Positions 42,690 to 64,000 of a stretch of 64,000 nt of DNA are shown here, in pieces (within the stretch, counting starts at the first letter, position 1; each line of letters starts with the position of its first letter). Position numbers and translations under genes: made by a program. Source of the stretch: an uncultured Candidatus Saccharibacteria bacterium (GTDB lineage: Bacteria > Patescibacteriota > Minisyncoccia > Phycocordibacterales > UBA12088); contig CAYPBQ010000002.1 in the NCBI GenBank assembly GCA_964409035.1, positions 83,267 to 147,266 on the forward strand, given 5' to 3'. The notes below the pieces were generated by a model, which was given only the letters and a program-made list of their open reading frames with translations, had not been told where the DNA came from and searched no databases.

Positions 42690-42754
42690 AGTTGAGGTAG
42701 CAACGCTACTCAATTGCTCAAAACAATACCACTTATCCCCTCCCCTCTCAAGTT

Positions 42755-42964: not shown

Positions 42965-43007
42965 GTATCGTATAACTAGCGAATCAAATTAAAACCCCTA
43001 CTTTTTG

Positions 43008-43079
43008 TGCGCCCGCCAGGACTCGAACCCAGAATAACTGATCCGAAGTCAGTTGTGATATCCATTTCACCACGGGCGC
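43008..43079 (-). tRNA. tRNA-Arg(UCG), no CCA encoded.
   Basis: Acceptor GCGCCCG/CGGGCGC, anticodon loop CUUCGGA. Confidence 0.75.
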
Positions 43080-43139
43080 ATATGCGGAATAATAGCCTAG
43101 TATAGAGAAAATACAAAGTCTGGAGTACACTATATACAC

Positions 43140-44609
43140 ATGGAGATTACCCGACCCTACATACCTGATGAGGTGGCGCGTGTCACTGCTGTAATAGAAA
43201 ATGCTGGATTTGAAGCATATCTTGTTGGTGGATGTGTGCGGGATCTTCTACTTGGAAGAGCACCAAAAGACTGGGATATTACCACCAACGCAGTACCTGC
43301 AGAAATTCAATCTCTCTTCGAAGAAACTTATTACCACAACGAATTTGGTACAGTGGGAGTTGTAACAACAAGTGAACTTCCCTCTTTAAAGGTCATAGAG
43401 ATTACGCCATATAGGACAGAAGGCTCTTATTCTGACGCGAGACGCCCAGATAGTGTGTCCTTTAGCAAAAACCTTTCAGATGACCTGGAACGACGTGATT
43501 TTAGTATAAATGCGATGGCATATAATGTTTCATCCGAAACACTTGTTGATATTTTTAACGGAAAAGAAGACCTAAAAAGGTGTTTAATTAGAGCAGTTGG
43601 TGATGCAAATAAAAGATTTTCTGAAGATGCGCTGCGTATTCTACGCGCTGTACGCCTTTCTGCTGAATTAGGATTTACCATTGAAGCAGATACCCTATCT
43701 GCAATAGTTACATGTGTAACGCAGTTGGAGAAGATTTCAAAAGAACGTATCAGAGATGAATTTTCAAGAATAATGCTTTCAGATAGACCAGCTGAGGCAC
43801 TGTTTCTTATGAAACAGGTCAAAATGCTGCAATATGTTATTCCAGACATTATGAGGTCTATTAATGTTGAGCAGAATAAATCCCACAAGTACAACGTATT
43901 TGAGCACTTAGTGCGCAGCGCCCAACACGCAGCAGATAAAAACCTACCGCTAGACATGCGATTGGCAGCTCTATTCCACGATATTTCAAAACCTGAAAGC
44001 AGGAGGTTTTCACAGGAAACACATGACTATACGTTCTACGGACATGAAGTAATTGGCGCTAGAGTAACAAAAAGAGCTTTACAGAGCCTTAAATATCCAA
44101 ATGACCTCGTCGAGAGGGTTTCTTTGTTGGTTAGGTGGCATATGTTCTTCTCTGATCCTGATGAAATTACACTTTCAGCGGTCCGAAGAATGATTAGTAA
44201 TGTTGGGAAGGAGAACATTTGGGACCTGCTAGAACTAAGAATATGCGACAGAATTGGTAGTGGTAGACCTAAGGAGCAGCCATTTAGATTTAGAAGGTAC
44301 AAGGCAATGGTTGAAGAAGCTCTGCGTGACCCAATCAGTGTAGCAATGTTGAAAATTGACGGCGCTAAGCTGATGGAAACATTTCATGAGAAACCAGGAC
44401 CAAGGATTGGCTGGACATTACACGCCCTTCTTGAAGAAGTTATAGAAGATCCAAAGAAAAACACTGAGATGCTGCTCCTTAAAAGAGCTAAAGAGCTGCT
44501 TGATTTACCAAATGAAGAGCTTGAAACGTTAGGCAAAAAAGGCAGGGAAAAGCGTGACGAAGTTGATGAAGCAGAGATTGCTGAAATACAAAAAAAGTAC
44601 GGTGTGTAG
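43140..44609 (+). CDS. cca: CCA-adding tRNA nucleotidyltransferase (PolyA_pol head domain plus HD domain).
   Basis: GGCVRDLLLGRAPKDWDITT head motif. RDFSINAMA. A C-terminal HD-domain histidine/aspartate pattern. Confidence 0.85.
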   Translation: MEITRPYIPDEVARVTAVIENAGFEAYLVGGCVRDLLLGRAPKDWDITTNAVPAEIQSLFEETYYHNEFGTVGVVTTSELPSLKVIEITPYRTEGSYSDARRPDSVSFSKNLSDDLERRDFSINAMAYNVSSETLVDIFNGKEDLKRCLIRAVGDANKRFSEDALRILRAVRLSAELGFTIEADTLSAIVTCVTQLEKISKERIRDEFSRIMLSDRPAEALFLMKQVKMLQYVIPDIMRSINVEQNKSHKYNVFEHLVRSAQHAADKNLPLDMRLAALFHDISKPESRRFSQETHDYTFYGHEVIGARVTKRALQSLKYPNDLVERVSLLVRWHMFFSDPDEITLSAVRRMISNVGKENIWDLLELRICDRIGSGRPKEQPFRFRRYKAMVEEALRDPISVAMLKIDGAKLMETFHEKPGPRIGWTLHALLEEVIEDPKKNTEMLLLKRAKELLDLPNEELETLGKKGREKRDEVDEAEIAEIQKKYGV

Positions 44610-48558: not shown

Positions 48559-50709
48559 ATGGTAAAGAAAACGTATTCTGTGGAACTAGGAGGGAAGACG
48601 CTAACGGCAGAATTTAGTGATCTTGCTGATCAAGCAAATGGTTCAGTTATTTTGCGCTATGGCAAAACAGTTGTACTCGCAACCGCTACCATGGGGGAAG
48701 CAGAGAGACACGAAATCGATTACTTTCCGCTCACTGTTGATTATGAAGAGCGATTTTATGCTGCGGGGCAAATACTTGGATCACGCTTTATGCGCAGAGA
48801 AGGGCGCCCAAGTGAGGAGGCTATTCTCTCAGGAAGAATTGTGGACAGAACAATTCGTCCACTTTTTAATCACCACCTAAGAAATGAGGTGCAGGTAGTG
48901 CTTACGATACTTTCAATTGATGAGGATGATCCAGATGTACTAGGCGTTATTGCTGCGTCACTTGCACTTGGTGTTAGCGATATACCGTGGGGTGGGCCAG
49001 TTAGTGCGGTGCGAATAGGAAAGAAAAAGGGAGGGGAAGTGATTATAAACCCCACCTATATTGAGCGAGCATTTGAAGACTATCATTATGATGTGCTTGC
49101 CTGTGGCAAAGATGGATCAATCAACATGATTGAAATTGCATCAGACGAAGCAAGCGAGCAGGAGATTCTTGAAGCGCTACAAGCAGCCGCGCGCATACAC
49201 AACACCCTAGGAGCGTGGCAACAAGAAATAATTTCAGAAATAGGAAAGCAGAAAAAAACAGTTACTCATCTAGCATATGCTGATGAAATTATCGCTCACT
49301 TTAATGAGCATGCGGCAGCTAAACTCCCAGCTGCACTTATATCTGGTGAACCTGGTAAGGCGGGCATAAAGAAACTGAAAGAAGAGTGGCTTGCAAAGGT
49401 TGCGGTGGACATTCCTGATTTCTCAAAGCGCGCAGGGCATTATTTTGAAGAGAAAGTTGACGAACAACTACACAGCGAAGCTACGGTAAATGGAAGACGT
49501 CCTGATGGAAGAGCAATGGATGAGGTTAGACCACTATTTGCACTTGCAGGAGAAATGTCACCAATGGCACACGGTACTGGCATATTTTATCGTGGTGGAA
49601 CACACGTATTTACCGCACTCACCCTAGGTGGTCCTGGTGATTCACAAATTGTGGATTCTATAGAACACCAAGATGAGAGCAAGCGCTTCATGCATCACTA
49701 CAACTTCCCACCATTCAGCTCTGGAGAAACTGGAAGACTTGGTGGAGTTAACAGAAGAGCGGTAGGGCATGGCGCTCTAGCAGAGAAGGCGCTCCTTCCA
49801 ATGATTCCTAAAAAGGAAGACTTTCCATATACCATTAGGTTGGTATCTGAGTGTATGGCATCTAATGGATCTACCTCAATGGCATCAACATGCGCATCAA
49901 CACTAGCGCTTATGGATGGAGGTGTACCCATTAAACGACCAGTGGCGGGCATTGCCATGGGGCTTATGCTGCACAAAGGTTCTCACAAGGTGCTCACTGA
50001 TATTCAAGGACCGGAAGATCATCATGGAGATATGGATTTTAAGGTGGCAGGAACATCAGAGGGTATAACTGCGGCACAGATGGATGTAAAAGTTGGCGGA
50101 ATACCCCTTACCATTCTTGAAGAGGCATTAGTGGGTGCAAAGAAGGCTCGTCTCCACATACTTGAAACCATGCGTGGTGCAATCAGCGCACCTCGTTCGG
50201 ACATATCGCCACTTGCTCCTAAGATAATCGCGCTTAAGGTGCGAATCGATCAAATTGGTCTTGTTATTGGTCCTGGTGGAAAAACCATAAATGGTATTAA
50301 AGACAGAACAGGTGTTACAGACATCACCATAGAAGATGATGGCTCTGTGTTTATAACAGGAAAGGAGGGTACTGCAGAATTGGCCCGAGATGAAATTGCT
50401 AGCCTCACCCATGTATACACCGCAGGTGAACGATACGAAGGAGAGGTTGTACGCATTATGGATTTTGGAGCATTTGTAAAAATAGGAAAAAATGCCGAAG
50501 GATTGGTACACATTTCTGAAATAGCTCCATTTAGAATCCAAAAAGTTGAAGATGTGCTTTCTGTAGGAGAGGTTGTTCCGGTTATAATACGAGAGATAGA
50601 TGAGAAAGAACGAATTAATCTTTCTATCAAAATGGCTGACCCAGAATTTGCACAGCGTAAAGGTATAAACCCCGACATAAAGGGAACAAGTACCAATGGA
50701 TCCAACTAA
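48559..50709 (+). CDS. pnp: Polyribonucleotide nucleotidyltransferase (PNPase).
   Basis: 716 aa with two RNase PH domains plus KH and S1 domains. Classical rpsO-pnp arrangement. Confidence 0.95.
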   Translation: MVKKTYSVELGGKTLTAEFSDLADQANGSVILRYGKTVVLATATMGEAERHEIDYFPLTVDYEERFYAAGQILGSRFMRREGRPSEEAILSGRIVDRTIRPLFNHHLRNEVQVVLTILSIDEDDPDVLGVIAASLALGVSDIPWGGPVSAVRIGKKKGGEVIINPTYIERAFEDYHYDVLACGKDGSINMIEIASDEASEQEILEALQAAARIHNTLGAWQQEIISEIGKQKKTVTHLAYADEIIAHFNEHAAAKLPAALISGEPGKAGIKKLKEEWLAKVAVDIPDFSKRAGHYFEEKVDEQLHSEATVNGRRPDGRAMDEVRPLFALAGEMSPMAHGTGIFYRGGTHVFTALTLGGPGDSQIVDSIEHQDESKRFMHHYNFPPFSSGETGRLGGVNRRAVGHGALAEKALLPMIPKKEDFPYTIRLVSECMASNGSTSMASTCASTLALMDGGVPIKRPVAGIAMGLMLHKGSHKVLTDIQGPEDHHGDMDFKVAGTSEGITAAQMDVKVGGIPLTILEEALVGAKKARLHILETMRGAISAPRSDISPLAPKIIALKVRIDQIGLVIGPGGKTINGIKDRTGVTDITIEDDGSVFITGKEGTAELARDEIASLTHVYTAGERYEGEVVRIMDFGAFVKIGKNAEGLVHISEIAPFRIQKVEDVLSVGEVVPVIIREIDEKERINLSIKMADPEFAQRKGINPDIKGTSTNGSN

Positions 50710-52318
50710 CGAAACAACAAAAGACAGTCCGACATCGCAAGCTACACCAACCAATAATGATGTAGTACTTGATGATCTGGATGTAAAACTCTCTGAAGTT
50801 GAGCATTCGCTCTCAGAGAGAGATATTTCTGCGCGCACCAGAGCGGAAGAGGAGCTTGCCGCAGAGCTTGCAAATGGAGTAAATCAAGACATCTCACTTG
50901 ATTTACCTGATAATCCAAATGCAACTTGGCCTGTTGCTGCAACTCCTAACAAGGAGATTGTAATCAATGCCACCCCTCCAACCAAGCAAGAGGAGGTAGC
51001 GCAACAACAAAACAAAGAAACTTCTGAACCTTCTTCTGCTGCAACACCATTTGCCTATAGAGGCTCTGTCACACCACTTGAACAAAGAGGTGTTAAGGAA
51101 GTGAGTATCTCAGCCGTTGCCGAGTCTGCTCCAAAACAGAGCGCGCTTGCTAATGCTAAGTCAGCACTCTTAGCTGGAGGTAATGCTGTGCGAGATTTCT
51201 CAGCTAGTAAACCACCCGTGGAAGCACCAGCGTCTATTCGAGCACCACAAACAGCACCTCAGCCGTTACCAACTAGTGTAAATAGTGAGATTTCTACATC
51301 TCCTGTTACACCCACCGCTCCAAAATTAGCGCCTACTATTCCTTCAGTTTCAGAAGCGACACAAGGCAATATTGTGCCTCCGCAGACACCAGAGCAACCA
51401 ACACCACAAGCAACTCAAAGTGACGATTCTGTAAGACCGATTCGCACCTTTAGAGATGATATTGCGCGCGTGCTTCAGAAGAAAAAAACTACCTTGGTAG
51501 ATGCCGTGGTCGCCGAAGAGAATCGTGCAAATCGCACAAAAGAGGTAGAGGCTCCAAAGGAGGCGCCGCGATCGATTGTGTCGTATATAGTTGTATTTTT
51601 AAGTGGCCTACTCATTACTGGCGGACTTAGTGCATATGCTATCTATTACTTTTTTGGGCCAACTGATATAACCAGAATTGATGTTGCTGAAGTGCCGTCA
51701 ATAATATTTGTGGAGGAGCAAAAAGAGTTTGAGTTTTTTGACGACGAGAGCAAGCGCGACATCTTTAGAAGAATTGGCGTAGAAAAAGATTCTGCACTAC
51801 TTAGATTAGGAAATATAGAACAACTCTATTTTACACGCAGTATCTATGACGAAAGTATTGCCTCAACCAAAAAAATGCTTGTTTCGTCAGCAGAATTTAT
51901 TGCTCGAAGTGAATTTCGCATTGATAGCTCCTTCGCAAGAAATCTTTTGCCTGAGATGACCTTTGGCTATCACTCATTTGATGGCACCCAACCATTTATA
52001 GTCTTTAAAACTGAGTTCTATGAAGACGCCTTTGCTGCCATGCTTGATTGGGAACCACGCATGAATGAGGATTTATCACCACTATTTGGAGATATAGTGA
52101 TGGAAACATACCTAGTTGGGTCATCAACAAGAACAAGACCTGCAAATCTTACCTTTGAAGATGTGCTGGTAAAGAATAAAGAAGTGAGAGTGCTACATGA
52201 TGCTAATGGTAAAGAGTTACTCCTCTATGGATTTCCAAATCCTGAAACCCTAATAATCACCACAAATCAATATACATTTACTGAAATAGTCACTCGTTTG
52301 CAGTCAATTAGAATATAG
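50696..52318 (+). CDS. Hypothetical single-pass membrane protein: a Pro/Thr/Ala-rich disordered N-terminal half, a transmembrane helix, and a ~230-aa C-terminal domain.
   Basis: Topology from hydrophobicity only. It overlaps the pnp stop. Confidence 0.4.
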   Translation: MDPTNETTKDSPTSQATPTNNDVVLDDLDVKLSEVEHSLSERDISARTRAEEELAAELANGVNQDISLDLPDNPNATWPVAATPNKEIVINATPPTKQEEVAQQQNKETSEPSSAATPFAYRGSVTPLEQRGVKEVSISAVAESAPKQSALANAKSALLAGGNAVRDFSASKPPVEAPASIRAPQTAPQPLPTSVNSEISTSPVTPTAPKLAPTIPSVSEATQGNIVPPQTPEQPTPQATQSDDSVRPIRTFRDDIARVLQKKKTTLVDAVVAEENRANRTKEVEAPKEAPRSIVSYIVVFLSGLLITGGLSAYAIYYFFGPTDITRIDVAEVPSIIFVEEQKEFEFFDDESKRDIFRRIGVEKDSALLRLGNIEQLYFTRSIYDESIASTKKMLVSSAEFIARSEFRIDSSFARNLLPEMTFGYHSFDGTQPFIVFKTEFYEDAFAAMLDWEPRMNEDLSPLFGDIVMETYLVGSSTRTRPANLTFEDVLVKNKEVRVLHDANGKELLLYGFPNPETLIITTNQYTFTEIVTRLQSIRI

Positions 52319-52359
52319 AGAGTGTTGCGTAGGGTATGTAGAGGAGTTATCATAATGAT

Positions 52360-52758
52360 ATGAATCATCCCGATATAACGCCAGCACAACTGGAATCATT
52401 TAAAAATAGACTGCTCGCAGAAAAAATAGAGGTGGAAGAATCTCTTAAAGAAGTTGGTGTTAGAAACCCACAAAATCCTAGCGATTGGGTAGCGACATCA
52501 GGTGATATGCCTGAAGTAAATGCTGATGCTAACGAGCTAAGCGATAAGTTTGAAGAATATGGTCAAAACCAGGGGTTGGTAAACAATCTTGAAGTACGCC
52601 TCGCAAATATTTCTCGTGCCCTAGAAAAAATAGACAATGGGGGATACGGTATCTGTGAAATATCAAATGCACCAATCGAGATGGATAGACTCGAGGCTAA
52701 TCCTACTGCTCGAACCTGCAAGGAACACATGGAAGAGGGTGACTCGCTTCAAGCGTAA
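52360..52758 (+). CDS. DksA/TraR-family C4-type zinc-finger protein.
   Basis: CEISNAPIEMDRLEANPTARTC is a TraR/DksA-like C4 finger. Coiled-coil N-terminus. Confidence 0.55.
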   Translation: MNHPDITPAQLESFKNRLLAEKIEVEESLKEVGVRNPQNPSDWVATSGDMPEVNADANELSDKFEEYGQNQGLVNNLEVRLANISRALEKIDNGGYGICEISNAPIEMDRLEANPTARTCKEHMEEGDSLQA

Positions 52759-52761
52759 TAT

Positions 52762-54261
52762 ATGGCGGTAGCTCGGGTAACAAGCGCCCAACCCAGCTAT
52801 CCGTACGCAGTGCTTGTAGACGTTGAAACCGACCTTGGAAAGGGGCTTAATTCTTTTTCAATTGTTGGACTTCCTGATAAGGCGGTTGATGAAGCAAAAG
52901 ATAGGGTTTCATCTGGCATCAAAAATTCTGGCTATCCCTCACCAAAAAGTACCAATGTAAAAACAGTGGTTTCTCTTGCTCCTGCTGATTTTAAAAAGGA
53001 GGGTACGCACTACGACCTACCAATTGCTGTGTCATACCTTATAGCAAACGGGGTAATTCCGCCTATTTCTACATCAATTATGTTGATTGGTGAGCTTGCT
53101 CTTGATGGAGGCGTGCGCGGCGTTCGCGGTGTATTAGCTTGTGCAATCGCTGCAAAAAAAGCAGGGTGTGAAGCTATCGTAGTACCGCTTGCAAACGCAG
53201 AAGAAGCCTCGTTGGTTGACGGTGTTTCGGTGTATCCGATAACCACTCTTAAAGAATTGATACTGCACCTTAGAAATGAAGTGCTATTATCTCGCCACAA
53301 CTCATCACACACGCCAAAAGATATAAGTCCACCTCGTATAGACTTTTTTGATATTAGAGGACAAGAAAGCGCAAAGCGAGCACTCGAGATAGCGGCAGCA
53401 GGAAGACACAATATAGTGCTATATGGCCCACCAGGTACTGGTAAATCAATGCTTGCACAAGCCTTTTGCGGTATTTTACCTCCTCTTACCCACGAAGAAG
53501 CGCTTGAGGCAACCATTGTTCACTCTCTTGCGGGAGTATTGCATACAACATATATCAGCGAGCCTCCGATGCGAGCTCCACACCACACAAGCTCACATAT
53601 TGCGCTAGTAGGAGGGGGGAGCACGCCTCGTCCAGGAGAAATAACCCTAGCACACAGGGGAGTATTATTTTTGGATGAGTTTCCTGAATTTGAACGAAGA
53701 ACAATTGACGCCTTGCGTGAACCACTAGAAGGAGGAGAAATAACTATCGCACGAGCTCGAGGCGCGGTTAAGTATCCAGCAAATTTTATTCTTGTTGCGG
53801 CAATGAATCCAACAAGAGGGCATGACGGCGTTCAAAATAATGCTGAAAAGGATCGATTACAAAAGAAGATATCTGGTCCAGTGGTAGACAGAATTGATAT
53901 ATGGATTGAAGTAGGACTCATTACACACAGCACTCTCTCGAGTATTCCTAATGGAGAACGCTCTATTGCTATACAAAACCGAGTTGCTGACGCGAGAAAA
54001 CTGCAGTATCAAAGATTTAACATAAACGGAAAAACTAATTCAGAGATGTCTGTTCGGGATTTAGACACTTTTATAACCATGAACGCAGATGCCAAGGAGG
54101 TGTTAAACCAATCCGCACAGCGCCTTCAGCTCTCACCACGTTCATACCATCGAGTAGTTAAGCTATCTCGAACGATTGCTGACTTATCAAAAAGCGAGAA
54201 CGTAGAGAGTGCGCACGTACTTGAGGCACTTCACTACAGACCAAAGGATTTATTTATCTAA
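52762..54261 (+). CDS. comM: YifB/ComM family Mg-chelatase-like AAA+ ATPase.
   Basis: Lon-like N-terminal domain. Walker A (GPPGTGKSMLA). ChlI-like C-terminus. Confidence 0.85.
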   Translation: MAVARVTSAQPSYPYAVLVDVETDLGKGLNSFSIVGLPDKAVDEAKDRVSSGIKNSGYPSPKSTNVKTVVSLAPADFKKEGTHYDLPIAVSYLIANGVIPPISTSIMLIGELALDGGVRGVRGVLACAIAAKKAGCEAIVVPLANAEEASLVDGVSVYPITTLKELILHLRNEVLLSRHNSSHTPKDISPPRIDFFDIRGQESAKRALEIAAAGRHNIVLYGPPGTGKSMLAQAFCGILPPLTHEEALEATIVHSLAGVLHTTYISEPPMRAPHHTSSHIALVGGGSTPRPGEITLAHRGVLFLDEFPEFERRTIDALREPLEGGEITIARARGAVKYPANFILVAAMNPTRGHDGVQNNAEKDRLQKKISGPVVDRIDIWIEVGLITHSTLSSIPNGERSIAIQNRVADARKLQYQRFNINGKTNSEMSVRDLDTFITMNADAKEVLNQSAQRLQLSPRSYHRVVKLSRTIADLSKSENVESAHVLEALHYRPKDLFI

Positions 54262-55259
54262 AATGGGTTTTTAGCACCGCGAACCTCAAAGTGTAGATGG
54301 GGACCTGTTGATCTGCCGGTGTTACCTACATAACCAATAACCTGTCCTTGAACCACCTGCTGCCCGGCATACACAATATTTCCAGAAAGGTGAGCATAGA
54401 GTGTTTGTGTACCGTTTGGATGTTCTACCACAATGTAATTACCATACCCACCATTCCAACCGCTAGTACGCGAGACGAGCACCTTTCCTCCCGCAGAAGC
54501 TCTCACCGACGCGCCAATTCTCGCGCCAAAGTCAATTCCGTTGTATCCATGAATACCTTGTGTCTTAACTGCTCCTGGTACTGGATGAATGTAGTAACCC
54601 GAATTTGAAGCGGTTTTTGAACCTCTCGATGCATATGCTGGTTTTGGTGCCTCAATCTCTCCTCCAGGAATAGTGAGGGTTTCACCTACGGAAATGGCTT
54701 CTGCTGAGTCGAGGTGGTTATATGAAATAATCTCCTCTTCATTACCTTTAAACTTTTTAGCAATAGAGGCTAGGGTATCGCCCTTTTTGACAGTATATTG
54801 AACACCGTTAATAGGTAGGATCAGTAGCTCTTGCCCAGGCAAAATAGAGCTACCCTTGGAAATATTATTTGCCCACAAAATAGTATTCGGGGAAACATTA
54901 AACATCTGAGCGATTTGCGAGAGGGAGTCTCCATCCTTTACTACATAGAGTGAAATCTCGCCATTTCCTGAAGTATCCTCGATATTGGCCATTGAACCAG
55001 CAGGGCCAGTCTCAGCACGTAGCGCGCTGTCTGAAACTACAATAATATCTCCACCTCCCTTTGAAGGATTTGGATCGACATTATACGCCCCCTTAAGGAG
55101 GGGTACGGTTTGTGAGCTATATGCCTCATAGGCCTCATCGCTAGTCTGCTTTTCTGAGGAAAAGAATGACGTCATCCGAGAAAGCATGCTACCTTCTGCT
55201 GCCATTGGCATACTTATTAGACCAAAGATGGCGATGTAGGTCACGATATATGTCACCAA
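54258..55259 (-). CDS. LysM-domain M23-family peptidoglycan endopeptidase.
   Basis: Two LysM repeats. M23 HxxxD ... HLHFE zinc motif. Confidence 0.8.
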   Translation of the reverse strand: MVTYIVTYIAIFGLISMPMAAEGSMLSRMTSFFSSEKQTSDEAYEAYSSQTVPLLKGAYNVDPNPSKGGGDIIVVSDSALRAETGPAGSMANIEDTSGNGEISLYVVKDGDSLSQIAQMFNVSPNTILWANNISKGSSILPGQELLILPINGVQYTVKKGDTLASIAKKFKGNEEEIISYNHLDSAEAISVGETLTIPGGEIEAPKPAYASRGSKTASNSGYYIHPVPGAVKTQGIHGYNGIDFGARIGASVRASAGGKVLVSRTSGWNGGYGNYIVVEHPNGTQTLYAHLSGNIVYAGQQVVQGQVIGYVGNTGRSTGPHLHFEVRGAKNPF

Positions 55260-55521
55260 AGGGGAGTGTAATACGCTCGTAGCCTTTGGATCTTTGTGAG
55301 TTGTTTTGATAAGCCGTTTTTTAGCCCAATCAGCCGGTATTTTCTGGAAATGGCTCTGTTGAGCCGTGGGTCATTCGGTCGTATGCGTCAGTACCTAAGC
55401 ACTATAGCGGTCTATAAAATGCTGTCAACGACTTTTATACACGAAAAAATAATGAAATATTACTAGACAACTAGTCAAGTTTTGTTGCTTTATTTTATAG
55501 GCGGTATGGTATAGTCCACCC

Positions 55522-57444
55522 ATGACATATTTAGACGAACTAAATACCCACCAACATGAAGCTGCGACTACCATCACGGGTCCACTTCTTGTTATCGCAG
55601 GAGCCGGGGCAGGGAAGACAAAGACCATCACCCATCGAATACTCCATATAATCAACTCTGGGGTTGCCCCAAAGAACATTCTTGCTGTTACCTTTACCAA
55701 TAAGGCAGCAAGTGAGATGCGCGAGCGGGTGCTATCCCTCATGAACAAAGAAGGTATATCTCGTGAGGACGGGTCACCAACAGTAGCAACCTTTCACTCC
55801 TTGTGTGCGACTATTTTAAGAAACGAATCAGAGGCCATCGGTATAAAGAGGCACTTTGTCATATTAGATAGAGCAGATTCAATAAAGGCAATAAAGGAGG
55901 CTATGGAAAAATCAGGCGTATCTGATAAGCAATTTGAACCAAGAACCATACTTGGACATATTTCAAGGCAAAAGGGAGAGGGTAATACCGCAGAGGTGTA
56001 TGAGCGTAATTATGGGTCCGAGCATGTGCCGGGTGTAATCGCTAAGGTGTGGAGAAATTATGAAGTCATACTCCAAAGAGAGCAGGCGCTTGATTTTGAT
56101 GACCTACTCTTAAAAACCAAATTACTATTTAACGAGCGTAAAGACATACTCTCTCGATACTCAGCTGCGTGGCAATATATCCACATTGATGAATACCAAG
56201 ATACCAATAAAGTGCAGTTCAGCATTGCGCGACTGTTGGCAAGCGAGCATGGCAACATATGCGTTGTAGGTGATATTGATCAAAATATTTACTCGTGGCG
56301 GGGTGCGTCTATCGATAACATCTTAGACTTTGAAAAAGAGTTCCCGGGCGCACGGGTAGTTACCCTCGAGCAGAATTACCGATCAACAAAGACAATTGTG
56401 CATGTTTCAAACAAAGTCATAGAAAAAAATCTTCGCCGTAAAAAGAAAGTGGTCTTTACTGAAAACGAGGATGGCGAGCCTATCTCGCTATTTTCTGCAT
56501 TTGATGAGCAAGATGAAGCTAGGTTTATAGCCCACACGTCAAAGAAATTGATCGAGAGTGGTGTATCACCAAGCTCAATAGCAGTTCTTTATAGAGCCAA
56601 CTTTCAGTCACGCGTACTGGAAGAGGCGTATCTCTCTAGCGAGGTGTCGTATCGTGTGTTAGGGGTAAAGTTTTTTGATAGAAAAGAAATTAAAGATGTA
56701 CTCTCATATGTAAGAGCATCACTTAACAGAGATTCTCACTTCGATATATCTCGCACTGCAAATGTGCCGGTAAGAGGTATTGGCAAAGTGACGCTGATTA
56801 AAATGTTGGCTGGTCAAATCGACGACCTTACCCCCGCAACAAGAAAAAAGGTGACGGATTATTACACACTACTTGATGCTATTAAAAATCAAGCCTCAAC
56901 CTCTAAACCATCTGAAACGATTAAATTTGTACTTGACGCAAGCGGCTACCTACAAAGTCTTGAGCATACAAAAAAGGAAGAGGACGTAGAGCGAGCAGAA
57001 AACCTCAAAGAACTGGTAACGTTGGCTCAAAAATACGATGAACTTAGCCCCCTTCAAGGTATCGAAGCGCTGCTTGAATACGCAGCACTTGAAAGCGACC
57101 AGGACAAGCTAGAGCAAAAGGAGAAAGCGGTAACACTGATGACAGTACACGCGGCAAAAGGTCTTGAGTTTGATTATGTATTTATAGCAGGACTCGAGGA
57201 TGGTCTATTTCCACACGAGAGAATGGGAGATGGGAGGGTTGATAATGAAGAGGAGCGCCGACTCTTCTACGTTGCAGTAACAAGAGCTGCTAAAAAAATA
57301 TATCTAACTCACTCAGCAACCCGCACCATATATGGATCAAAGCAGGTAAACTTGCCGTCTGAATTTTTAGCAGATATTGATGAGGAATTCCTTGTTGCAG
57401 AAGAGAGGCCTGATGGCTTTAGTAGGGTAATATACCTAGATTAG
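55522..57444 (+). CDS. pcrA: UvrD/PcrA-type superfamily 1 DNA helicase.
   Basis: Walker A (AGAGAGKT), motifs II through VI, and VHAAKGLEFD. Confidence 0.9.
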   Translation: MTYLDELNTHQHEAATTITGPLLVIAGAGAGKTKTITHRILHIINSGVAPKNILAVTFTNKAASEMRERVLSLMNKEGISREDGSPTVATFHSLCATILRNESEAIGIKRHFVILDRADSIKAIKEAMEKSGVSDKQFEPRTILGHISRQKGEGNTAEVYERNYGSEHVPGVIAKVWRNYEVILQREQALDFDDLLLKTKLLFNERKDILSRYSAAWQYIHIDEYQDTNKVQFSIARLLASEHGNICVVGDIDQNIYSWRGASIDNILDFEKEFPGARVVTLEQNYRSTKTIVHVSNKVIEKNLRRKKKVVFTENEDGEPISLFSAFDEQDEARFIAHTSKKLIESGVSPSSIAVLYRANFQSRVLEEAYLSSEVSYRVLGVKFFDRKEIKDVLSYVRASLNRDSHFDISRTANVPVRGIGKVTLIKMLAGQIDDLTPATRKKVTDYYTLLDAIKNQASTSKPSETIKFVLDASGYLQSLEHTKKEEDVERAENLKELVTLAQKYDELSPLQGIEALLEYAALESDQDKLEQKEKAVTLMTVHAAKGLEFDYVFIAGLEDGLFPHERMGDGRVDNEEERRLFYVAVTRAAKKIYLTHSATRTIYGSKQVNLPSEFLADIDEEFLVAEERPDGFSRVIYLD

Positions 57445-57445
57445 T

Positions 57446-58252
57446 ATGCGAGCCAAAAAAAGCCTTGGGCAACACTTTTTAACAAGTACTTCAGCAGTTT
57501 CATCCATTATTGCTGCCGCAAAGTTAGATAAAAACGATGTGGTAATTGAAATAGGCCCCGGAAAAGGAGTGCTCACAAGGGCGCTGCTGCAGCATGTAGG
57601 GAAGGTTGTTGCCATTGAAAAAGACCCTGACATGATTTCATTTCTCTCTGAGGAATTTGCGCCCGAGCTTCAAAGTGGCTCACTCTTGTTATACGAGGGC
57701 GGTGCTGAAGAAATTAGCTTTGACTCACTAATATTAGGTGAGTATAAAATTGTGGCTAACATTCCGTATTATATTACCGGTCTTCTGCTACGACATATTT
57801 TTTCACAAAAAAGGCTTCCATCATGTGCGGTATTACTAGTCCAGAAGGAGGTCGCGACACGAATCGCAAGGGATGAAAAGGAGAGTATCCTCTCTCTTTC
57901 AGTAAAGGTGTATGGAAACCCGGTGTACATTCAAACCGTAAAAGCAGGCAGTTTTTCTCCTGTTCCTAAGGTTGATTCAGCAATTCTGGCTATTTATGAT
58001 ATACAACGAAATAATATTGAATCGCCACACAAAGAAAAGGTGTTTTTTACCTTAATTAAGGAGGGGTTTAGCAAAAAGAGAAAGTTACTTGTATCAAATT
58101 TATCAAGTGTATTACCTAAAGAGGATATTCTTAGAGCATTTATGGATGCCGACATTTCGAACAGTGCAAGAGCGGAAGATGTTCATCTTTCAAAATGGCT
58201 GACTATTACCACATCACTTGAAAGACTAATCCACAGCAACAATACAAATTAG
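57446..58252 (+). CDS. rsmA: 16S rRNA (adenine1518/1519-N6)-dimethyltransferase KsgA/RsmA.
   Basis: LGQHFL ... VIEIGPGKGVLT SAM-binding motifs. Confidence 0.9.
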   Translation: MRAKKSLGQHFLTSTSAVSSIIAAAKLDKNDVVIEIGPGKGVLTRALLQHVGKVVAIEKDPDMISFLSEEFAPELQSGSLLLYEGGAEEISFDSLILGEYKIVANIPYYITGLLLRHIFSQKRLPSCAVLLVQKEVATRIARDEKESILSLSVKVYGNPVYIQTVKAGSFSPVPKVDSAILAIYDIQRNNIESPHKEKVFFTLIKEGFSKKRKLLVSNLSSVLPKEDILRAFMDADISNSARAEDVHLSKWLTITTSLERLIHSNNTN

Positions 58253-58297
58253 CTATTCTGTAATAAAACTCTGCTATACTTTGCAGGAAGGGTATTT

Positions 58298-59335
58298 ATG
58301 AACGAATCCATACTTCCAAGCAAGCAGTTTATTATTACCGTGATTGTTATTACGCTAGTGCTTGGCGGTGGTATCGCCGTATTTTTAAGCACGAGAGAAT
58401 CCGCAAGCAAATTTTTTGCTGAATCAAACGAGAAAGAGATGCGGGAAATTGCAGAAAAACTGGTCGCGTCTGACGAAGATGAGGATGGACTACTTGATTG
58501 GGAAGAATCGCTTTGGAAAACTGATGTAAAAAATGCAGACACTGATGGCGACGGCACATTAGATGGCGAAGAAATACAGATCGGAAGAGACCCACTTAAA
58601 CCTGCCCCAGGTGATGAAATCACCGTTCAGAGTATTGAAGTATTTAGGGATAATGCCGTAGCTGATGCGGAAGGGAGGAGTAGTAACCTTACCGCTGAAT
58701 TTGCTAAAAACTTTTTTATTGAGTACGCAAAAACCAAAGAGGCAGGTCTTCCTGTTGGGATCATGGGGGCAAGTATTCAAAAAGTAGAGAATTTGATTCC
58801 TCAAGATCAATACGAAAATAGGAAGCCTCTTTTTACAGAGGAAGATATTTTGATAGCGCCATCACAAGACAATTACGCCCTGCGAACGTATGGAAATGAG
58901 GTAGGACTTGCGTTAAAAAACCACCCTGTGGTAGGGGAGAACATGCTTGATGTATTCTACCGAGCACTGCGGAGCGGAAACAAAGCAGAGCTTGATACCC
59001 TACGAGCCTCAGCTACTTCTGTAGACAAGTTGGCAGAAGAAATAATCTCAATACGAGTACCTGAGCCGCTAGTAGCTAGTCATGTTGAGCTATTGAATAG
59101 CTTGGCGCTTTTTAATGAATTACTTGTTGCGTTTGGTAATACGTACGAAGATCCACTGGGCGCAACTATTGCTATGACCTATTACCCTAAGACCGCTAAA
59201 GAACTAGCAATTGTAGCAATATCGACCGCAAAGTACTTTGAGTCGAGGGATATTGTGTATGCACGAAATGACCCAGGGTATGTATTTAATGAACTACTTG
59301 TTATTTATAAGAGATCGCCGAATCTATTTATATGA
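58298..59335 (+). CDS. Membrane-anchored protein with thrombospondin-type-3-like Ca-binding Asp repeats (DEDEDGLLD, DTDGDGTLDGEE).
   Basis: N-terminal transmembrane helix. DxDxDG repeats. Confidence 0.4.
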   Translation: MNESILPSKQFIITVIVITLVLGGGIAVFLSTRESASKFFAESNEKEMREIAEKLVASDEDEDGLLDWEESLWKTDVKNADTDGDGTLDGEEIQIGRDPLKPAPGDEITVQSIEVFRDNAVADAEGRSSNLTAEFAKNFFIEYAKTKEAGLPVGIMGASIQKVENLIPQDQYENRKPLFTEEDILIAPSQDNYALRTYGNEVGLALKNHPVVGENMLDVFYRALRSGNKAELDTLRASATSVDKLAEEIISIRVPEPLVASHVELLNSLALFNELLVAFGNTYEDPLGATIAMTYYPKTAKELAIVAISTAKYFESRDIVYARNDPGYVFNELLVIYKRSPNLFI

Positions 59336-61038
59336 AATCAGTTGTTGGGGTAATCACATCTCTTCTGACTCGCTATATTGCGCCTTCTACAATAATAATG
59401 GCGTTGTTTGCTCCTTCAGTATTCATCATAGCAACCCCACAAAAGACTGAGGCGTTGTTTGGATTCGGCACAGTACCAGTAATTGATGTCGACAATTTAT
59501 TTACCAATGTTGCAAACACGGTTGAGGCTGTGTGGGCAACACTAAAGGAGTCCACACTTGATGGAATTGCCTGGTATCTAGCCAAATTAGTAATACAACG
59601 AATGACTGTTGAAATTATCAACTGGATCAATAGGGACTTTGAAGGGTATCCACAATTTGTTAATAACCTTGGGGTATTTCTTACTGATATTGCTGACCAA
59701 GCAACCGGCGCATTTATCCGAGAGAATAACCTTGAATATTTATGTAACCCCCTGAGTATCCGAATCGCCTTGCTTACCTATCAATACGAGCCTATTCAGC
59801 AAAGATACTCGTGTACCCTCTCTAGGGTGGTAAATAATATCGACTCATTTATCCAAGGAAATTTTGCTGAGGGTGGGTGGACTGGATGGTTTTCACACGC
59901 AACTATCCCCACCAACAACCTCCCAGGGCAATATCTTGTGATACAGGGTGAACTTGTTAAGTACGCAAACAAAAAAGAAGAGAATCAGAAAAACTACCTC
60001 TCTTATGGGCAGGGTATGTTTTCAGACCTCTCATTTGAATGGTGTCAAACTGTTGAAAATACTGAGGGAGTACCTGATGGGGCAGGTGGGGTTAGATATG
60101 AGGCAGGAATGACTAGAGATGATTGCCCAATAAAGACTCCGGGCAAGTTGATAACCGACCAGCTAAGTTGGGTAACCACAAGTCCACTTAGACAACAAGA
60201 GCTTGCTGATGAGCTAAATGAGGCTATATCAGCCATACTTAGCACGCTAATGAGTAAGCTACTCTCTGATGGACTTGCATATCTTACTTCAAGCGGCTTA
60301 GGAAGAGGTTCTGCTGGATCTTCGTATGATGATCTTTTGCGAGAAGATATCGCGCGCCAACAAGATCGCGTAACTCAAGACATTGTGCTCCAGATAGATC
60401 AGCAAATTGAAGAGGAGCTCGCGCTTGGTAGGGAGCTTGGATGTTATGGAGAGGATCCAGGAGATGGTGATGGAGGAGGAGGTGGGGGCGGCGGAGGGGG
60501 CGATATTGGGGGAAATGAATTTCGTGATGTACCTATCGGTGACAGATCAGAACTTCCTGATACCACCACATTCTCAAATATTAGATACACCCCCGCTGAT
60601 TCGTATGCGGCATATCAATCATCTGGTCTTGAGCCTCTTACCCCAACGGAGTACTACGAGCAGCTTGTCCTTGGTGGATTTATCGATACACCAACTAGTA
60701 CTTCGTGGAGTGAGAACTTTACCCTTAGAGAAGTTGGCATAGATGAAGGTTCTATTATTATAGAAAGGACTGGTGAGGATGCGTACCGAGTACTCTATGA
60801 TGCAAATGGCGACGATGTACGAGAGGTCATCGCAACCACCAGAGAAGTAGAGGGGCAGTCGGGTGTTTACGCCTTTACTCGAGTGACTGGTGAGGATTTA
60901 GGATTTCAAAATCTTGGCGTAAGAAGTAATGTTGCTGCCGGAGCGGTAAATGAGGCACTACGAGAGTATTACTTAATAAATGAAAATCCTCCTCAAACAA
61001 AACTTGATCCAGTAGGCGCTGGCGGATCGACCCAGTAA
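59332..61038 (+). CDS. Large secreted or membrane hypothetical protein with an internal poly-Gly linker (GDGDGGGGGGGGGGD).
   Basis: N-terminal hydrophobic segment. Gly-rich linker similar to those in the two downstream genes. Confidence 0.4.
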   Translation: MKSVVGVITSLLTRYIAPSTIIMALFAPSVFIIATPQKTEALFGFGTVPVIDVDNLFTNVANTVEAVWATLKESTLDGIAWYLAKLVIQRMTVEIINWINRDFEGYPQFVNNLGVFLTDIADQATGAFIRENNLEYLCNPLSIRIALLTYQYEPIQQRYSCTLSRVVNNIDSFIQGNFAEGGWTGWFSHATIPTNNLPGQYLVIQGELVKYANKKEENQKNYLSYGQGMFSDLSFEWCQTVENTEGVPDGAGGVRYEAGMTRDDCPIKTPGKLITDQLSWVTTSPLRQQELADELNEAISAILSTLMSKLLSDGLAYLTSSGLGRGSAGSSYDDLLREDIARQQDRVTQDIVLQIDQQIEEELALGRELGCYGEDPGDGDGGGGGGGGGGDIGGNEFRDVPIGDRSELPDTTTFSNIRYTPADSYAAYQSSGLEPLTPTEYYEQLVLGGFIDTPTSTSWSENFTLREVGIDEGSIIIERTGEDAYRVLYDANGDDVREVIATTREVEGQSGVYAFTRVTGEDLGFQNLGVRSNVAAGAVNEALREYYLINENPPQTKLDPVGAGGSTQ

Positions 61039-61121
61039 TAATGGAGTGGGGAGGTTATAAAAATTTATTCAAAAGCATCGAAGCACACACCAGAGTTGCA
61101 ACCAGCAAAGATTCATAAAAT

Positions 61122-62900
61122 ATGACTCAGTTAAAATCACTTCTCATCTCATCACTTCTCATCATTAGCGCATATGCTGGTTCAATTTGGTTTTATTCAG
61201 ATTCGCTTTCTGCACAAAGCCCTCCAAGAGAGGCGGTAACCTGTGAGGAGGTTGATACTACCATCGCACAACTCACCGCCCTTCGCGCACGAGCAGAGGC
61301 AGCAGACACACCAGAGGAGATACAAGCGATAGTAGATGAGTTTAACAGGCTAGAGACACATAACGGCAATGACCTTTTGGTGGCACAGCAAGAAAATCAA
61401 CTTGAAGATAGGAGGGAGTATTTGATAAGTAGGATAGAAGACACTATAGAGGTAGATACTGCGCAAGGTGGAAGAAATGCTGAAGAGCTTAATGATCTAC
61501 TAGCACGAGCAGAGACAGCAAATAACATTACCGAGCTTGGACGAGTAGAGGGAGAGCTCACTGAGATACGTGGAAGGTTAGGACTAAGTGGAGGTGGGGG
61601 TAGTGGAGGAGGTGGTGGAGGTGGGGGCGGGGTGATTGGTGGAGGGGGAGATGGGTCATGGGCAGGAGGCGTACTTGATGGAAGTGGAAAAGCTAATCGT
61701 GTTCCGATACCCGCCTTTACAAGAACCATAGTGCTTAACCCTGGTGATGACATACAAGCCGCAATAAACTCTGCGGGGCCTGGAACAGATATACAACTAA
61801 GAAGCGGCACATACTCATTCCGCAATATTTCTATAAATGGAAAGCAGGGTAATCCAAATGCGTGGATACGACTTGGAAACGCACCAGGAGAACGTCCAGT
61901 ACTAAAACCAACAGGTGGATATGCTGGTATAAGTGTTTTAGGAGGTTCAAGCTACGTCCTTATAGAAGGGTTAGAAGTAGATGGAAATAGAGTAGGAACA
62001 ACCCTTCCTGACGGAACCTACATTGGTTCATGGAATGACATGCTTAACTATTCAAACAGAAGTTGTGGCAACATTGGGTACCATTGCAATCAAGGGATTC
62101 ACATAGGGTGCGGAGGTTGTACTACAAACCAAGCGCATCACGTCGTAGTGAGGGACAATATCACCCACGACTTTGGCGGGTCAGGTATAACCACCTTTGC
62201 AGCTGACTATGTGGTAATCGAAGACAATGTGTCATTTAACAATGGTAACTTCTCTCGCTATGGCGAGAGCGGTATTTCTGCAGGTTTTCCTGTCATGACT
62301 GGTGGTGGAAGTTTGAATGATTATGGCTTTATAGTGCGAAGAAATATCACCTTCAACAATAAACAATTTCTTGGCTCAATAGATTGCGGTTGCGGTCCTG
62401 GTATCACCGACGGTAACGGCATAATTGTTGATGGAGCGGATCATTTTGGAGCATACAGAAGAACACTGCTTGAGAGCAATCTCTCGTATAACAATGGAGT
62501 TGAGGTTTCAGGGCAAGGAGTACACGGCACGGGTATGCACTCGGTAGATTCAAGTAATGTTGATTTTATAAACAACACTGCATACAACAATGCCGCGGGA
62601 CAAATATTTGCGTGTTGTAATTCGCGCAACAATACCTTCTACAACAACATAGCAATTGGTCCAAGGGCTCTTTTCACCGCAAGTGGGGGTTCCGGAACAG
62701 GAAAGTGCAACATTGTAAGTGCTAGTGAAAATGTAACCGCTACCGTTGCTGACCCTCTCTTTGTTAACCCCGGCGCAGGTGATTTTAGCTTGCGAGCAGG
62801 ATCGCCCGCCATTAATGCCGCATGCGATGTAACCGCATCCGCGGACCTAAATGGCAAAACCGCAAATGGCATCAAAGATATTGGGGCAATTGAAATGTAG
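61122..62900 (+). CDS. Secreted two-module protein: a conserved ~165-aa N-terminal module, a poly-Gly linker, and a right-handed parallel beta-helix (pectate-lyase-like) domain.
   Basis: Signal peptide. Repeating NN/NxG beta-helix coils (ITHDFGGSGITTF, VSFNNGNF, ITFNNKQF, LSYNNGVE, FINNTAYNNAAG). Confidence 0.55.
   Translation: MTQLKSLLISSLLIISAYAGSIWFYSDSLSAQSPPREAVTCEEVDTTIAQLTALRARAEAADTPEEIQAIVDEFNRLETHNGNDLLVAQQENQLEDRREYLISRIEDTIEVDTAQGGRNAEELNDLLARAETANNITELGRVEGELTEIRGRLGLSGGGGSGGGGGGGGGVIGGGGDGSWAGGVLDGSGKANRVPIPAFTRTIVLNPGDDIQAAINSAGPGTDIQLRSGTYSFRNISINGKQGNPNAWIRLGNAPGERPVLKPTGGYAGISVLGGSSYVLIEGLEVDGNRVGTTLPDGTYIGSWNDMLNYSNRSCGNIGYHCNQGIHIGCGGCTTNQAHHVVVRDNITHDFGGSGITTFAADYVVIEDNVSFNNGNFSRYGESGISAGFPVMTGGGSLNDYGFIVRRNITFNNKQFLGSIDCGCGPGITDGNGIIVDGADHFGAYRRTLLESNLSYNNGVEVSGQGVHGTGMHSVDSSNVDFINNTAYNNAAGQIFACCNSRNNTFYNNIAIGPRALFTASGGSGTGKCNIVSASENVTATVADPLFVNPGAGDFSLRAGSPAINAACDVTASADLNGKTANGIKDIGAIEM
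61260..61650 (+). repeat. 391-bp segment 100% identical to 63047-63437; the shared N-terminal module plus Gly linker of two adjacent secreted-protein genes.
   Basis: Base-by-base identity checked across both copies. The flanks diverge. Confidence 0.9.
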
Positions 62901-62911
62901 GTTCTCGCATC

Positions 62912-64000
62912 ATGAAAAACGCAATCAGTATAAGTAGTTTAGTGTCATTTATACTAATTGCGATTGCCTGTGTAAGTATTATTCCAACAAAGGGTAGTGC
63001 TCAGACACCACCACAAGAACCAATAACGTGCCAAGAAGTTTCTTCCACCATCGCACAACTCACCGCCCTTCGCGCACGAGCAGAGGCAGCAGACACACCA
63101 GAGGAGATACAAGCGATAGTAGATGAGTTTAACAGGCTAGAGACACATAACGGCAATGACCTTTTGGTGGCACAGCAAGAAAATCAACTTGAAGATAGGA
63201 GGGAGTATTTGATAAGTAGGATAGAAGACACTATAGAGGTAGATACTGCGCAAGGTGGAAGAAATGCTGAAGAGCTTAATGATCTACTAGCACGAGCAGA
63301 GACAGCAAATAACATTACCGAGCTTGGACGAGTAGAGGGAGAGCTCACTGAGATACGTGGAAGGTTAGGACTAAGTGGAGGTGGGGGTAGTGGAGGAGGT
63401 GGTGGAGGTGGGGGCGGGGTGATTGGTGGAGGGGGAGGGGGCACCACTACACCAGGAACAGGGGTAGGATCAGGTACCGCAGCGGGTACTGCAACTGATA
63501 CAGGCTTTGTGCCTGCGGGATATACCCTCGCATGGAATGATGAGTTTAACTCCCTAAGTCTAGGAAGTGGGTCCGCGTTTAGATGGACACCATTTGATAC
63601 CCTCGCAGCAAATGCAGGATATGACGCAAAAGGAAGAATACTTGCAAGTAACAGCTCTGATGCAATTTGGGTTGCTGACCACGAGATGGGTGCAAGTGGA
63701 ACACGAACATATGGTGACGCATTTAAAGCGGCGGGTACTTATGGCGATGGGCCATTCTTCCATGAAGTTTCGAGTGGTGCACTTGCCATGCGGGCATACC
63801 CAGTACCAAGCTCGGTTCGTAACGAATTTATTGCCTATGGATGGCCACAAGGCGCTCCTTATGCCGCAGGTGGAATATTTGGCTCACTCTCACACACACA
63901 GACATACGGCTACTATGAGGTGCGGCTTCGCGTAAACTCAATAACAAGAGGTCAGCATTTTGCGCTTTGGCTACTACAAGACGATCTGGCGTGGCCTCCT
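62912..64000 (+). CDS. Secreted paralog with the same N-terminal module and Gly linker, but a concanavalin-like/GH16-like C-terminal domain. Partial; it runs off the window edge.
   Basis: Nucleotides 63047-63437 are identical to 61260-61650. The C-terminus resembles GH16 (GQHFALWLLQDD, analogous to the PAFWLL block). Confidence 0.45.
   Translation, partial: MKNAISISSLVSFILIAIACVSIIPTKGSAQTPPQEPITCQEVSSTIAQLTALRARAEAADTPEEIQAIVDEFNRLETHNGNDLLVAQQENQLEDRREYLISRIEDTIEVDTAQGGRNAEELNDLLARAETANNITELGRVEGELTEIRGRLGLSGGGGSGGGGGGGGGVIGGGGGGTTTPGTGVGSGTAAGTATDTGFVPAGYTLAWNDEFNSLSLGSGSAFRWTPFDTLAANAGYDAKGRILASNSSDAIWVADHEMGASGTRTYGDAFKAAGTYGDGPFFHEVSSGALAMRAYPVPSSVRNEFIAYGWPQGAPYAAGGIFGSLSHTQTYGYYEVRLRVNSITRGQHFALWLLQDDLAWPP

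Follow-up and report, generated by a model that had tools for sequence, protein, structure and literature searches.

Why should two neighbouring genes that end in unrelated enzyme-type domains share a segment of identical DNA near their starts? This question is raised by one end of a stretch of 64,000 nucleotides (the window) from an uncultured Candidatus Saccharibacteria bacterium (GenBank assembly GCA_964409035.1, contig CAYPBQ010000002.1, positions 83,267 to 147,266), where four genes, here named g1 to g4, follow one another in the same orientation and a segment of g3 recurs in g4. Saccharibacteria are ultrasmall bacteria that, being obligate epibionts, live on other bacteria. An earlier reading of the letters alone (the original prediction) had taken the four genes for a secretome island in a surface-attached epibiont, and the genome closest to the window is indeed a Candidatus Saccharibacteria. 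Our own answer is a joint one, which we consider probable: g3 and g4 would encode exported paralogues that join a common module to different enzyme domains, the module would have been homogenised by gene conversion, the genes would occupy a recombining slot beside a type IV secretion cluster, and the module would serve as their common handle.

The proteins encoded by g3 and g4 follow one plan, namely an N-terminal signal or anchor, an invariant Cys, a helical module of ~115 residues, a Gly-rich linker and an enzyme-type domain. Within this plan, nucleotides 61260-61650 equal 63047-63437 base for base over 391 bp, the longest exact run at an offset of 1787, and dense mismatches set in right outside the repeat on either side. 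The 46 codons 5′ of the repeat can still be aligned between g3 and g4, at 53.5% DNA identity, and 3′ of the repeat the two genes are unrelated in sequence. Direct comparison therefore agrees with the original prediction, which had described an exact 391-bp repeat preceded by about 45 diverged codons.

Could the repeat be an artefact, a segment collapsed or duplicated in a metagenome assembly where in reality there is one such gene? The window is probably a contig of a metagenome-assembled genome (MAG), a contig from a sibling sample (L002, described below) has one gene only, and a variant module allele exists, so that the collapsing of assembly bubbles could make two similar copies look identical. 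However, each copy lies in an intact reading frame of its own and has its own 5′ and 3′ flanks, and an independent MAG contig (L001; GCA_964562615.1, uncultured Candidatus Saccharibacteria, from wastewater study SRP286056; PMC9405806) shows both genes, intact and in the same order, with module copies that are two differences apart. A third contig (L003) contains g3 and then the start of a g4-like gene; it ends inside its g4, and a repeat shared with its g3 is not the cause, as the longest shared word is 8 nt. Contig ends elsewhere fall in the repeat itself. A Logan contig from another sample than the window (L012; run SRR14271331) is 100% identical to window positions 49332-61289 and stops at 61289, 30 nt inside the repeat, which is exactly k-1 for a de Bruijn graph with k=31 and indicates that two different left flanks enter the repeat. 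L016, which belongs to another lineage (g2 87% identical), ends at the same gene position (g3 nt 168), and L013, a 76% relative, ends at g3 nt 216. The original prediction had itself named an assembly artefact among the things that would refute it; given the contigs that stop k-1 nucleotides into the repeat and the two-gene locus of L001, duplication or collapse during assembly is very unlikely as the source of the repeat, and the existence of a single gene in reality is extremely improbable.

The history of the repeat becomes legible when the window is compared with L001. Over uvrD, rsmA, g1 and g2 the two loci are 75-84% identical in DNA, with a synonymous divergence (dS) of ~0.9-1.8. The module paralogues within a genome are identical at 321 of 321 positions in the window and at 319 of 321 (99.4%) in L001, whereas the module orthologues of the two genomes are 84% identical (dS 0.67-0.74; ratio of non-synonymous to synonymous divergence, dN/dS, ~0.09). 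Each genome's module pair has all of its lineage-specific substitutions in common, including the synonymous ones. The signal regions behave in the opposite way: between genomes, g3 matches g3 at 65% and g4 matches g4 at 81.5%, and paralogues within a genome match at 53-57%. As the signal regions group by orthologue and the modules by genome, both genes must be older than the split between the window and L001; as the same opposite patterns are found in each, the module has been homogenised independently in each lineage. The exact tracts span gene nt 139-529 in the window and nt 151-458 plus 469-503 in L001, and these unlike borders point to separate conversion events. In both, the tracts reach as far as homology does: their 5′ limit is the diverged signal region, and their 3′ limit falls at the start of the Gly-linker region or inside it.

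Paralogues thus exceed orthologues in identity, and they do so for the module segment only. This is a classical signature, and it argues strongly for concerted evolution of the module by within-genome gene conversion; g3 and g4 can be read with confidence as tandem paralogues of old standing, in the genome of a Candidatus Saccharibacteria from wastewater. The recent gene conversion or domain swapping suggested by the original prediction is borne out by the near-complete identity within both genomes and by the chimeric gene described below. A competing account is that the module was duplicated once, recently, onto a second gene (domain shuffling), in which case its identity would reflect youth and not conversion. 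In its favour, the identity breaks off abruptly at domain borders, as is expected of a fresh fusion. Nevertheless, g3 and g4 are each orthologous between the window and L001, signal regions included, and the pair predates a split with a dS of ~0.7-1.6; moreover, the module pairs share their lineage-specific substitutions, silent ones too, within each genome. Two independent recent fusions at identical borders would be needed, and we regard this account as very improbable. Gene conversion between bacterial paralogues is known from tufA/tufB and from the Helicobacter pylori outer-membrane protein genes babA/babB and sabA/sabB. As in tufA/tufB and babA/babB, parts of the paralogues are identical within a genome, orthologues diverge, tract borders vary and chimeras arise; unlike in those cases, conversion here is limited to the handle or targeting module of tandem enzyme genes and spares the signal and catalytic parts. 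No comparable case in Saccharibacteria was found in the literature searched.

The repeat also seems to have acted as a site of deletion. L002, a Logan contig from run SRR14271335, which belongs to one series with the run of L012, matches the window without a single difference over 51697-61259 and 63438-64000, flanks of ~10 kb, and is without 61651-63046. Its single in-frame gene, for a protein of 488 residues, consists of the g3 signal region, one module and the GH16 part of g4. Unequal recombination on the repeat would explain this form, with the enzyme domain of g3 and the signal region of g4 being lost and an in-frame chimera left behind. At the repeat, where L012 breaks off, the L002 assembly continues; a collection of 5.8 billion proteins holds no piece of the g3 C-terminal domain at ≥90% identity; and a beta-helix gene follows g2 in the more distant L001 and L003, while L013 and L016 at least start a g3-type gene there. 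For these three reasons we judge the one-gene form to be probably a real repeat-mediated deletion that dominates its sample, and not a mis-join.

In the ~10 kb compared, L002 differs from the window by only eight substitutions, all inside the module and six of them G:C to A:T. The sites are 61409 and 61515-61532 (equivalent to 63196 and 63302-63319), and seven of the eight fall in this 18-bp patch, where the encoded loop reads TANNI in both window copies and AADDF in L002 and L001. No third copy that could have been the donor of the patch is present within the window. Import of a short divergent tract followed by conversion is a possible origin, as is clustered mutation. The target of a diversity-generating retroelement was also considered and set aside: the copies are identical and the L002 differences are not adenine-specific, although no reverse transcriptase search was made.

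What do the shared modules carry? The window cuts g4 short, and its truncated product gave only a weak match to EglC (E 2e-6); the full-length orthologues in L001 and L002 are 485-488 residues long. The product of the chimeric L002 gene (P0003) scores 72.2 bits against PF00722, for which the cut-off is 22 (E 4.6e-20), and has 51 PDB matches at E ≤ 0.01, mostly to GH16 chains. The best is 2vy0, LamA of Pyrococcus furiosus (E 1.6e-21), and the best-aligned structures are endo-beta-1,3-glucanases. In the L002 protein the catalytic motif EIDMLE (ExDxxE) occupies residues 365-370, and the window stops two codons short of it; in both the Pfam GH16 threshold and this motif the full g4 orthologue resembles LamA. 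These matches firmly support a predicted GH16 laminarinase-like domain at the C-terminus of g4, as the original prediction had proposed when it named a GH16/ConA-like domain.

For g3, the domain can be placed at the level of fold only. An AlphaFold model built on a 28-sequence alignment reached a predicted local distance difference test score (pLDDT) of 77 overall, mostly above 80 through the beta-helix. The top Foldseek match is the pectate lyase Pel9A (1ru4; E 2.7e-11, template modelling score on the target 0.62), followed by GH136, PL6 and PL9 enzymes. Pel9A gives the best superposition for the modelled domain, at a sequence identity of only 16%. An exact look-up of g3 in the assembly collection returned no record, and homologues of g3 carry PF13229 or PF22842, the latter as a precomputed label on the close homologues P0001 and P0002, and D430, D437, H339 and H340 are invariant in the family alignment. 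The g3 C-terminus is therefore well modelled as a right-handed parallel beta-helix with a Pel9A-like fold. The fold half of the earlier 'pectate-lyase-like' label is upheld by 1ru4, but the enzyme class it implied is not, as the family profile matches GH136, GH120, PL6 and PL9 structures about equally. We infer that the enzymes act on extracellular or host-surface polysaccharides.

In the g3 model, the module that precedes these domains forms helices at residues 41-60, 64-80, 85-114, 120-132 and 136-152, with block-averaged pLDDT mostly of ~70-97, and when g3 was modelled from its single sequence (pLDDT 46) the module alone was confident. Foldseek with that single-sequence model gave no significant match, and the matches of module size, at E > 2, were to helical bundles of a generic kind. 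When 11 module sequences were scanned against Pfam, sub-threshold partial matches alone came back. Among them, weak partial matches to DUF7902 in three of the 11 members (best E 1.7e-5) cover the last two helices (residues ~120-155; window 61480-61585), and a remote relationship to DUF7902 is possible. A VirB5-family model with E 0.013 in one member was treated as chance, and an SNF7 match in the PDB was driven by the Gly run and by coiled-coil composition.

A full HMMER profile search of 1.84 billion cluster representatives yielded 12 proteins at E ≤ 0.001. Eight new full-module proteins (P0038-P0045) carry the module at residues ~42-168, directly after a hydrophobic N-terminus, and seven of the eight continue into enzyme-type domains: a Chondroitinase_B-like beta-helix in five (two of them under the Pfam cut-off), a GH5 cellulase domain in P0040 and a rhamnogalacturonan-lyase-11-like (RGL11-like) domain in P0045. 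P0039, of only 206 residues, has a Thr/Pro-rich tail after the module. Across the family alignment the Cys is invariant, 12-20 residues past the hydrophobic stretch, and a His is near-invariant. The module has so far been seen in Saccharibacteria-like genomes only; no relative was found in phage records, and scans of metagenome contigs with the module and with g2 found nothing. The gene for P0040 (L006:10001-11722; also in L007 and L008) sits in the ribosomal-protein (str) region, flanked by fusA (EF-G) and tuf (EF-Tu); this gene region is typically highly expressed.

Where g3 and g4 lie in the genome is the next part of the answer. After g4, in L001 and L002, come a polytopic protein of 780-808 residues, small proteins, PrgI (VirB3-like), a TraC-like protein and a VirB4/TraG P-loop ATPase. 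PrgI and the VirB4/TraG P-loop were recognised by Pfam scan; the TraC-like label comes from the precomputed gene-table annotation only, the Pfam scan being negative. The polytopic protein, which has no Pfam match, we read as VirB6-like from its size, its many hydrophobic segments and its position in the cluster. Together these genes make up the monoderm conjugation-like type IV secretion cluster that has been described for Patescibacteria (10.1101/2025.01.22.634366), and in Southlakia epibionticum the cluster is reported to be essential, with a role that is not known (PMC10633639, PMC11665869). By BLASTP orthology the conserved backbone of the locus comprises a LysM-M23 peptidase (on the opposite strand), UvrD, RsmA, g1, g2, the VirB6-like protein and PrgI, and in L001 and L014, as far as these loci were read, TraC-like and VirB4 genes come next.

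Between g2 and the VirB6-like gene lies a slot of variable content. It is empty in L014/L015, from groundwater, holds the one chimeric gene in L002, a sibling sample of L012, holds two module-bearing genes in the window and L001, and holds three module-bearing genes and two more in L009 (GCA_026004575.1), whose genes have also been assembled from a Kunashir hot-spring run (PMC8468003). The two additional L009 genes, one of which encodes a beta-helix protein, are both under the threshold of the module model. Across lineages, the enzyme domains in the slot are GH16, beta-helix or RGL11-like. The cassette variation among relatives that the original prediction had proposed to look for thus takes the form of differing counts of module-bearing genes at one site, from 0, 1 and 2 up to at least 3. 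These comparisons strongly indicate that the module-bearing enzyme genes form an accessory, recombining array beside the type IV secretion genes; their absence from L014 makes them accessory at most to the secretion cluster. A related observation comes from L009, where there are two tandem copies of the g2 homologue. They share an exact repeat of 848 bp (L009:5576-6423 and 7129-7976) that covers the N-terminal domain, and their C-termini are different. L010 and L011, from other assemblies, begin inside this repeat. The same process would therefore act on a second gene family at the locus.

The genes g1 and g2 differ in kind from this array. Because they are kept beside the secretion cluster even in the cassette-free L014, they are best seen as conserved envelope genes of the backbone and not as variable cargo. 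The original prediction had placed both in its island: their exported or membrane nature stands, given a hydrophobic N-terminus in each, but their status as island cargo does not. The g1 protein has an N-terminal anchor (hydrophobic residues 12-30), an acidic TSP3/EF-hand-like repeat of Ca-binding type at residues 79-102 and an uncharacterised domain of ~220 residues. Its one repeat is TSP3-like just under threshold (PF18884 TSP3_bac, matched at residues 81-102, 24.0 bits against a cut-off of 25, E 3.5e-5), and weak matches to CglD, MtsD and lanmodulin were seen. Orthologues of g1 stand at the same position in L001, L009 and L014. The g2 protein consists of a signal or anchor, a conserved Cys-containing domain of ~370 residues, a poly-Gly linker and a C-terminal domain of ~170 residues; it matched no Pfam, NCBIfam or PDB sequence, and a genome contig scan with g2 returned the L001 contig only. 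Neither protein matched models of type IV secretion components, and both genes are syntenic with VirB6-like, PrgI, TraC-like and VirB4 genes in three distant lineages.

What, then, is the module for? In the scheme that we propose, it would be a handle that the enzymes have in common, whether as a stalk, as an oligomerisation element or as a dock to a single surface partner of them all, attached possibly through the lone Cys, and it would display interchangeable enzymes outside the cell. Homogenisation would be tolerated or favoured because all of the enzymes must fit the same partner, and a homogenised module would in turn make catalytic domains easy to swap or lose. Dockerin-, SLH- or CBM-bearing enzymes are built on the same logic, with one non-catalytic module, a flexible linker and various catalytic folds in several genes per genome. 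In contrast to those, the module here is N-terminal after the signal, is all-helical, matches no dockerin, SLH or CBM model and belongs to a tiny family (12 among the 1.84 billion representatives); and, unlike for cellulosomal enzymes, no cohesin-like partner is known.

Several observations weigh against our reading. The perfect identity in the window, as opposed to ~98%, could be slightly inflated by the collapsing of assembler bubbles, since a module allele with eight differences exists in the sibling sample. The modules of neighbouring cassettes in L009 are only ~40% alike (read by eye), which makes homogenisation a lineage-specific state and no requirement of the family. The one-gene variant comes from a single short-read contig. 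The g3 protein itself scores 19.1 bits against PF13229, under the cut-off of 25.9, and has no match to PF22842. The handle role has to contend with a module that matches nothing in Pfam, NCBIfam or, by sequence, the PDB. Finally, the P0040 gene is far from the secretion locus, and its place between fusA and tuf means that a link to the type IV secretion cluster is not obligatory.

The resemblance to polymorphic toxins noted in the original prediction deserves separate consideration. Under that explanation, g3 and g4 would be effectors with a conserved trafficking N-terminus and interchangeable toxins aimed at competitors or hosts, into which spare cassettes are recombined. The locus shares with Rhs and contact-dependent inhibition (CDI) systems a constant N-terminus, variable C-termini and recombination at the constant part, and a secretion system adjoins it. 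Against this, no small open reading frame of immunity type follows either gene or lies between cassettes in the window, L001 or L009, and the gap between g3 and g4 is 11 bp. The C-termini have glycoside hydrolase or polysaccharide lyase folds (GH16, GH5, PL-type beta-helix, RGL11-like) and not toxin folds; no promoterless orphan C-terminal cassettes are present in the loci read; and wherever the 5′ end of a module-bearing gene could be read, the gene proved to have a signal sequence of its own, a Sec-type signal or anchor that sets it apart from Rhs and CDI proteins. The likeness does not survive these findings, and a toxin role can be given hardly any weight.

The main functional rival to a handle role accepts the same genes and the same conversion but sees in them ordinary glycan foraging, with the secretion-side slot as a neutral insertion hotspot and the module as a spacer. 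Free or surface-held, the enzymes would break down environmental beta-glucans and the acidic polysaccharides of sludge or of a biofilm matrix, and the cell would ferment the products. Sugars set free by their numerous glycoside hydrolases are believed to sustain Patescibacteria (PMC11665869). Enzymes of GH16 laminarinase type and beta-helices of PL type are classic tools of foraging, a module-bearing GH5 enzyme lies outside the secretion locus, and the dispensability of the cassettes in L014 also favours foraging. However, two distant lineages (g1 ~32% and g2 ~25% identical to the window) have module-bearing genes in the same slot, from g2 to the VirB6-like gene, and if the module were only a spacer, one would not expect its Cys to be invariant, its His near-invariant and its dN/dS ~0.09. 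We therefore treat foraging as a serious, although the less likely, possibility, and continue to favour a common handle on an accessory array.

A role in wall remodelling invites comparison with VirB1, PrgK and TcpG, which are likewise exported glycan-cleaving enzymes in or beside a monoderm-type type IV secretion cluster, and other glycosidases have been proposed as possible substitutes for the VirB1 that is missing in the Candidate Phyla Radiation (10.1101/2025.01.22.634366). Unlike these hydrolases, the cassettes here vary in number, with none in L014, and a LysM-M23 peptidase is separately conserved nearby. To our knowledge, GH16 and PL-like beta-helix folds are not peptidoglycan hydrolases. 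The peptidase gene (LysM-LysM-M23; window 54258-55259, minus strand) lies a few genes upstream of g1 and is conserved in every related locus. Its product is likely an exported peptidoglycan hydrolase and could be the wall-remodelling enzyme of the neighbourhood.

A bolder version of the handle, which we think unlikely, is that the module is a docking or recognition element that couples Sec-exported enzymes to the essential, coupling-protein-less type IV apparatus or to g1/g2, with the slot as a recombination toolbox. Export would then proceed in two steps, like that of pertussis toxin with the Ptl system, and swapping the enzyme heads while the handle stays constant would fit the epibiont to the glycans that different hosts bear on their surface.

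The layout of the locus is collected in Table 1, and the open reading frame (ORF) coordinates and gene order given in the original prediction match the ORF listing. Each of the four proteins has one N-terminal hydrophobic stretch and no other (Kyte-Doolittle 19-residue mean 1.7-2.8), in keeping with the signal peptides that had been predicted for g3 and g4, and Gly runs were found, as predicted, in g2, g3 and g4. The linkers of these three genes are alike in DNA (74% over 54 nt). In g4 the order is signal or anchor, identical module, Gly/Thr linker and the first two thirds of the GH16 domain. A promoter and terminator scan gave nothing usable between the genes.

Table 1. Positions of the four genes, and of parts of g3 and g4, in the window.
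Feature	Position	Strand	Description and basis
g1	58298-59335	+	345 aa; ORF listing
g2	59332-61038	+	568 aa; 4-nt overlap with g1; ORF listing
g3	61122-62900	+	592 aa; ORF listing
g4	62912-64000	+	runs off the window end at codon 363; ORF listing
g3 codons 1-46	61122-61259	+	hydrophobic signal/anchor, 'LSA|Q' site, conserved Cys41; outside the converted tract
g3 helical module	61242-61577	+	aa 41-152; AlphaFold model and family alignment
Repeat copy A	61260-61650	+	391 bp; the larger part of both the module and the Gly-rich linker; gene-conversion tract
Variable patch	61515-61532; second copy 63302-63319	+	18 bp; loop between the last two module helices
g3 Gly/Ser-rich linker	61590-61691	+	aa 157-190; disorder predicted (pLDDT below 50)
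g3 right-handed parallel beta-helix domain (predicted)	61719-62897	+	aa ~200-592; Foldseek and profile matches
Repeat copy B	63047-63437	+	same letters as copy A
g4 GH16-like region	63524-64000	+	aa ~205-363; window stops at '...LAWPP'

Some features of the surroundings may be recorded here. G+C is 0.46-0.48 at 60001-64000, against 0.40-0.45 in most of the window, and GC skew there (+0.13 to +0.20) is higher than in most of it; both are raised partly because Gly-linker codons are G-rich. The cumulative GC-skew minimum at ~42-44 kb (42000-44609) was considered as a replication origin and rejected, the adjacent gene not being DnaA; the minimum adjoins three tRNA genes and a gene for a CCA-adding enzyme/poly(A) polymerase of 489 residues. 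The UvrD/PcrA helicase of L014 (L014:5261-8287) is 1008 residues long and contains an intein (PF14890), whereas the window orthologue (55522-57444; 640 residues) has none.

In summary, the conversion process and the logic of enzymes that share a module were already known, and the module itself appears to be new: no description of it, or of the cassette slot, was found in the literature searched. The locus presents strain-variable genes for exported polysaccharide enzymes, wedged between conserved genes at a secretion cluster that is reported to be essential and all built on one module. A reduced genome here shows concerted evolution clearly, and the two-gene and one-gene variants with otherwise identical flanks offer a natural experiment. 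Were the enzymes to serve foraging only, this would be a tidy and unsurprising instance of modular enzyme evolution; were the docking idea true, a secretion system whose role has been described as completely unknown would gain in them its first candidates for substrates or accessory factors. The interest of the locus lies chiefly in its concrete, strain-variable enzymes, candidates for host-surface or matrix-degrading factors, and in their tie to the secretion locus.

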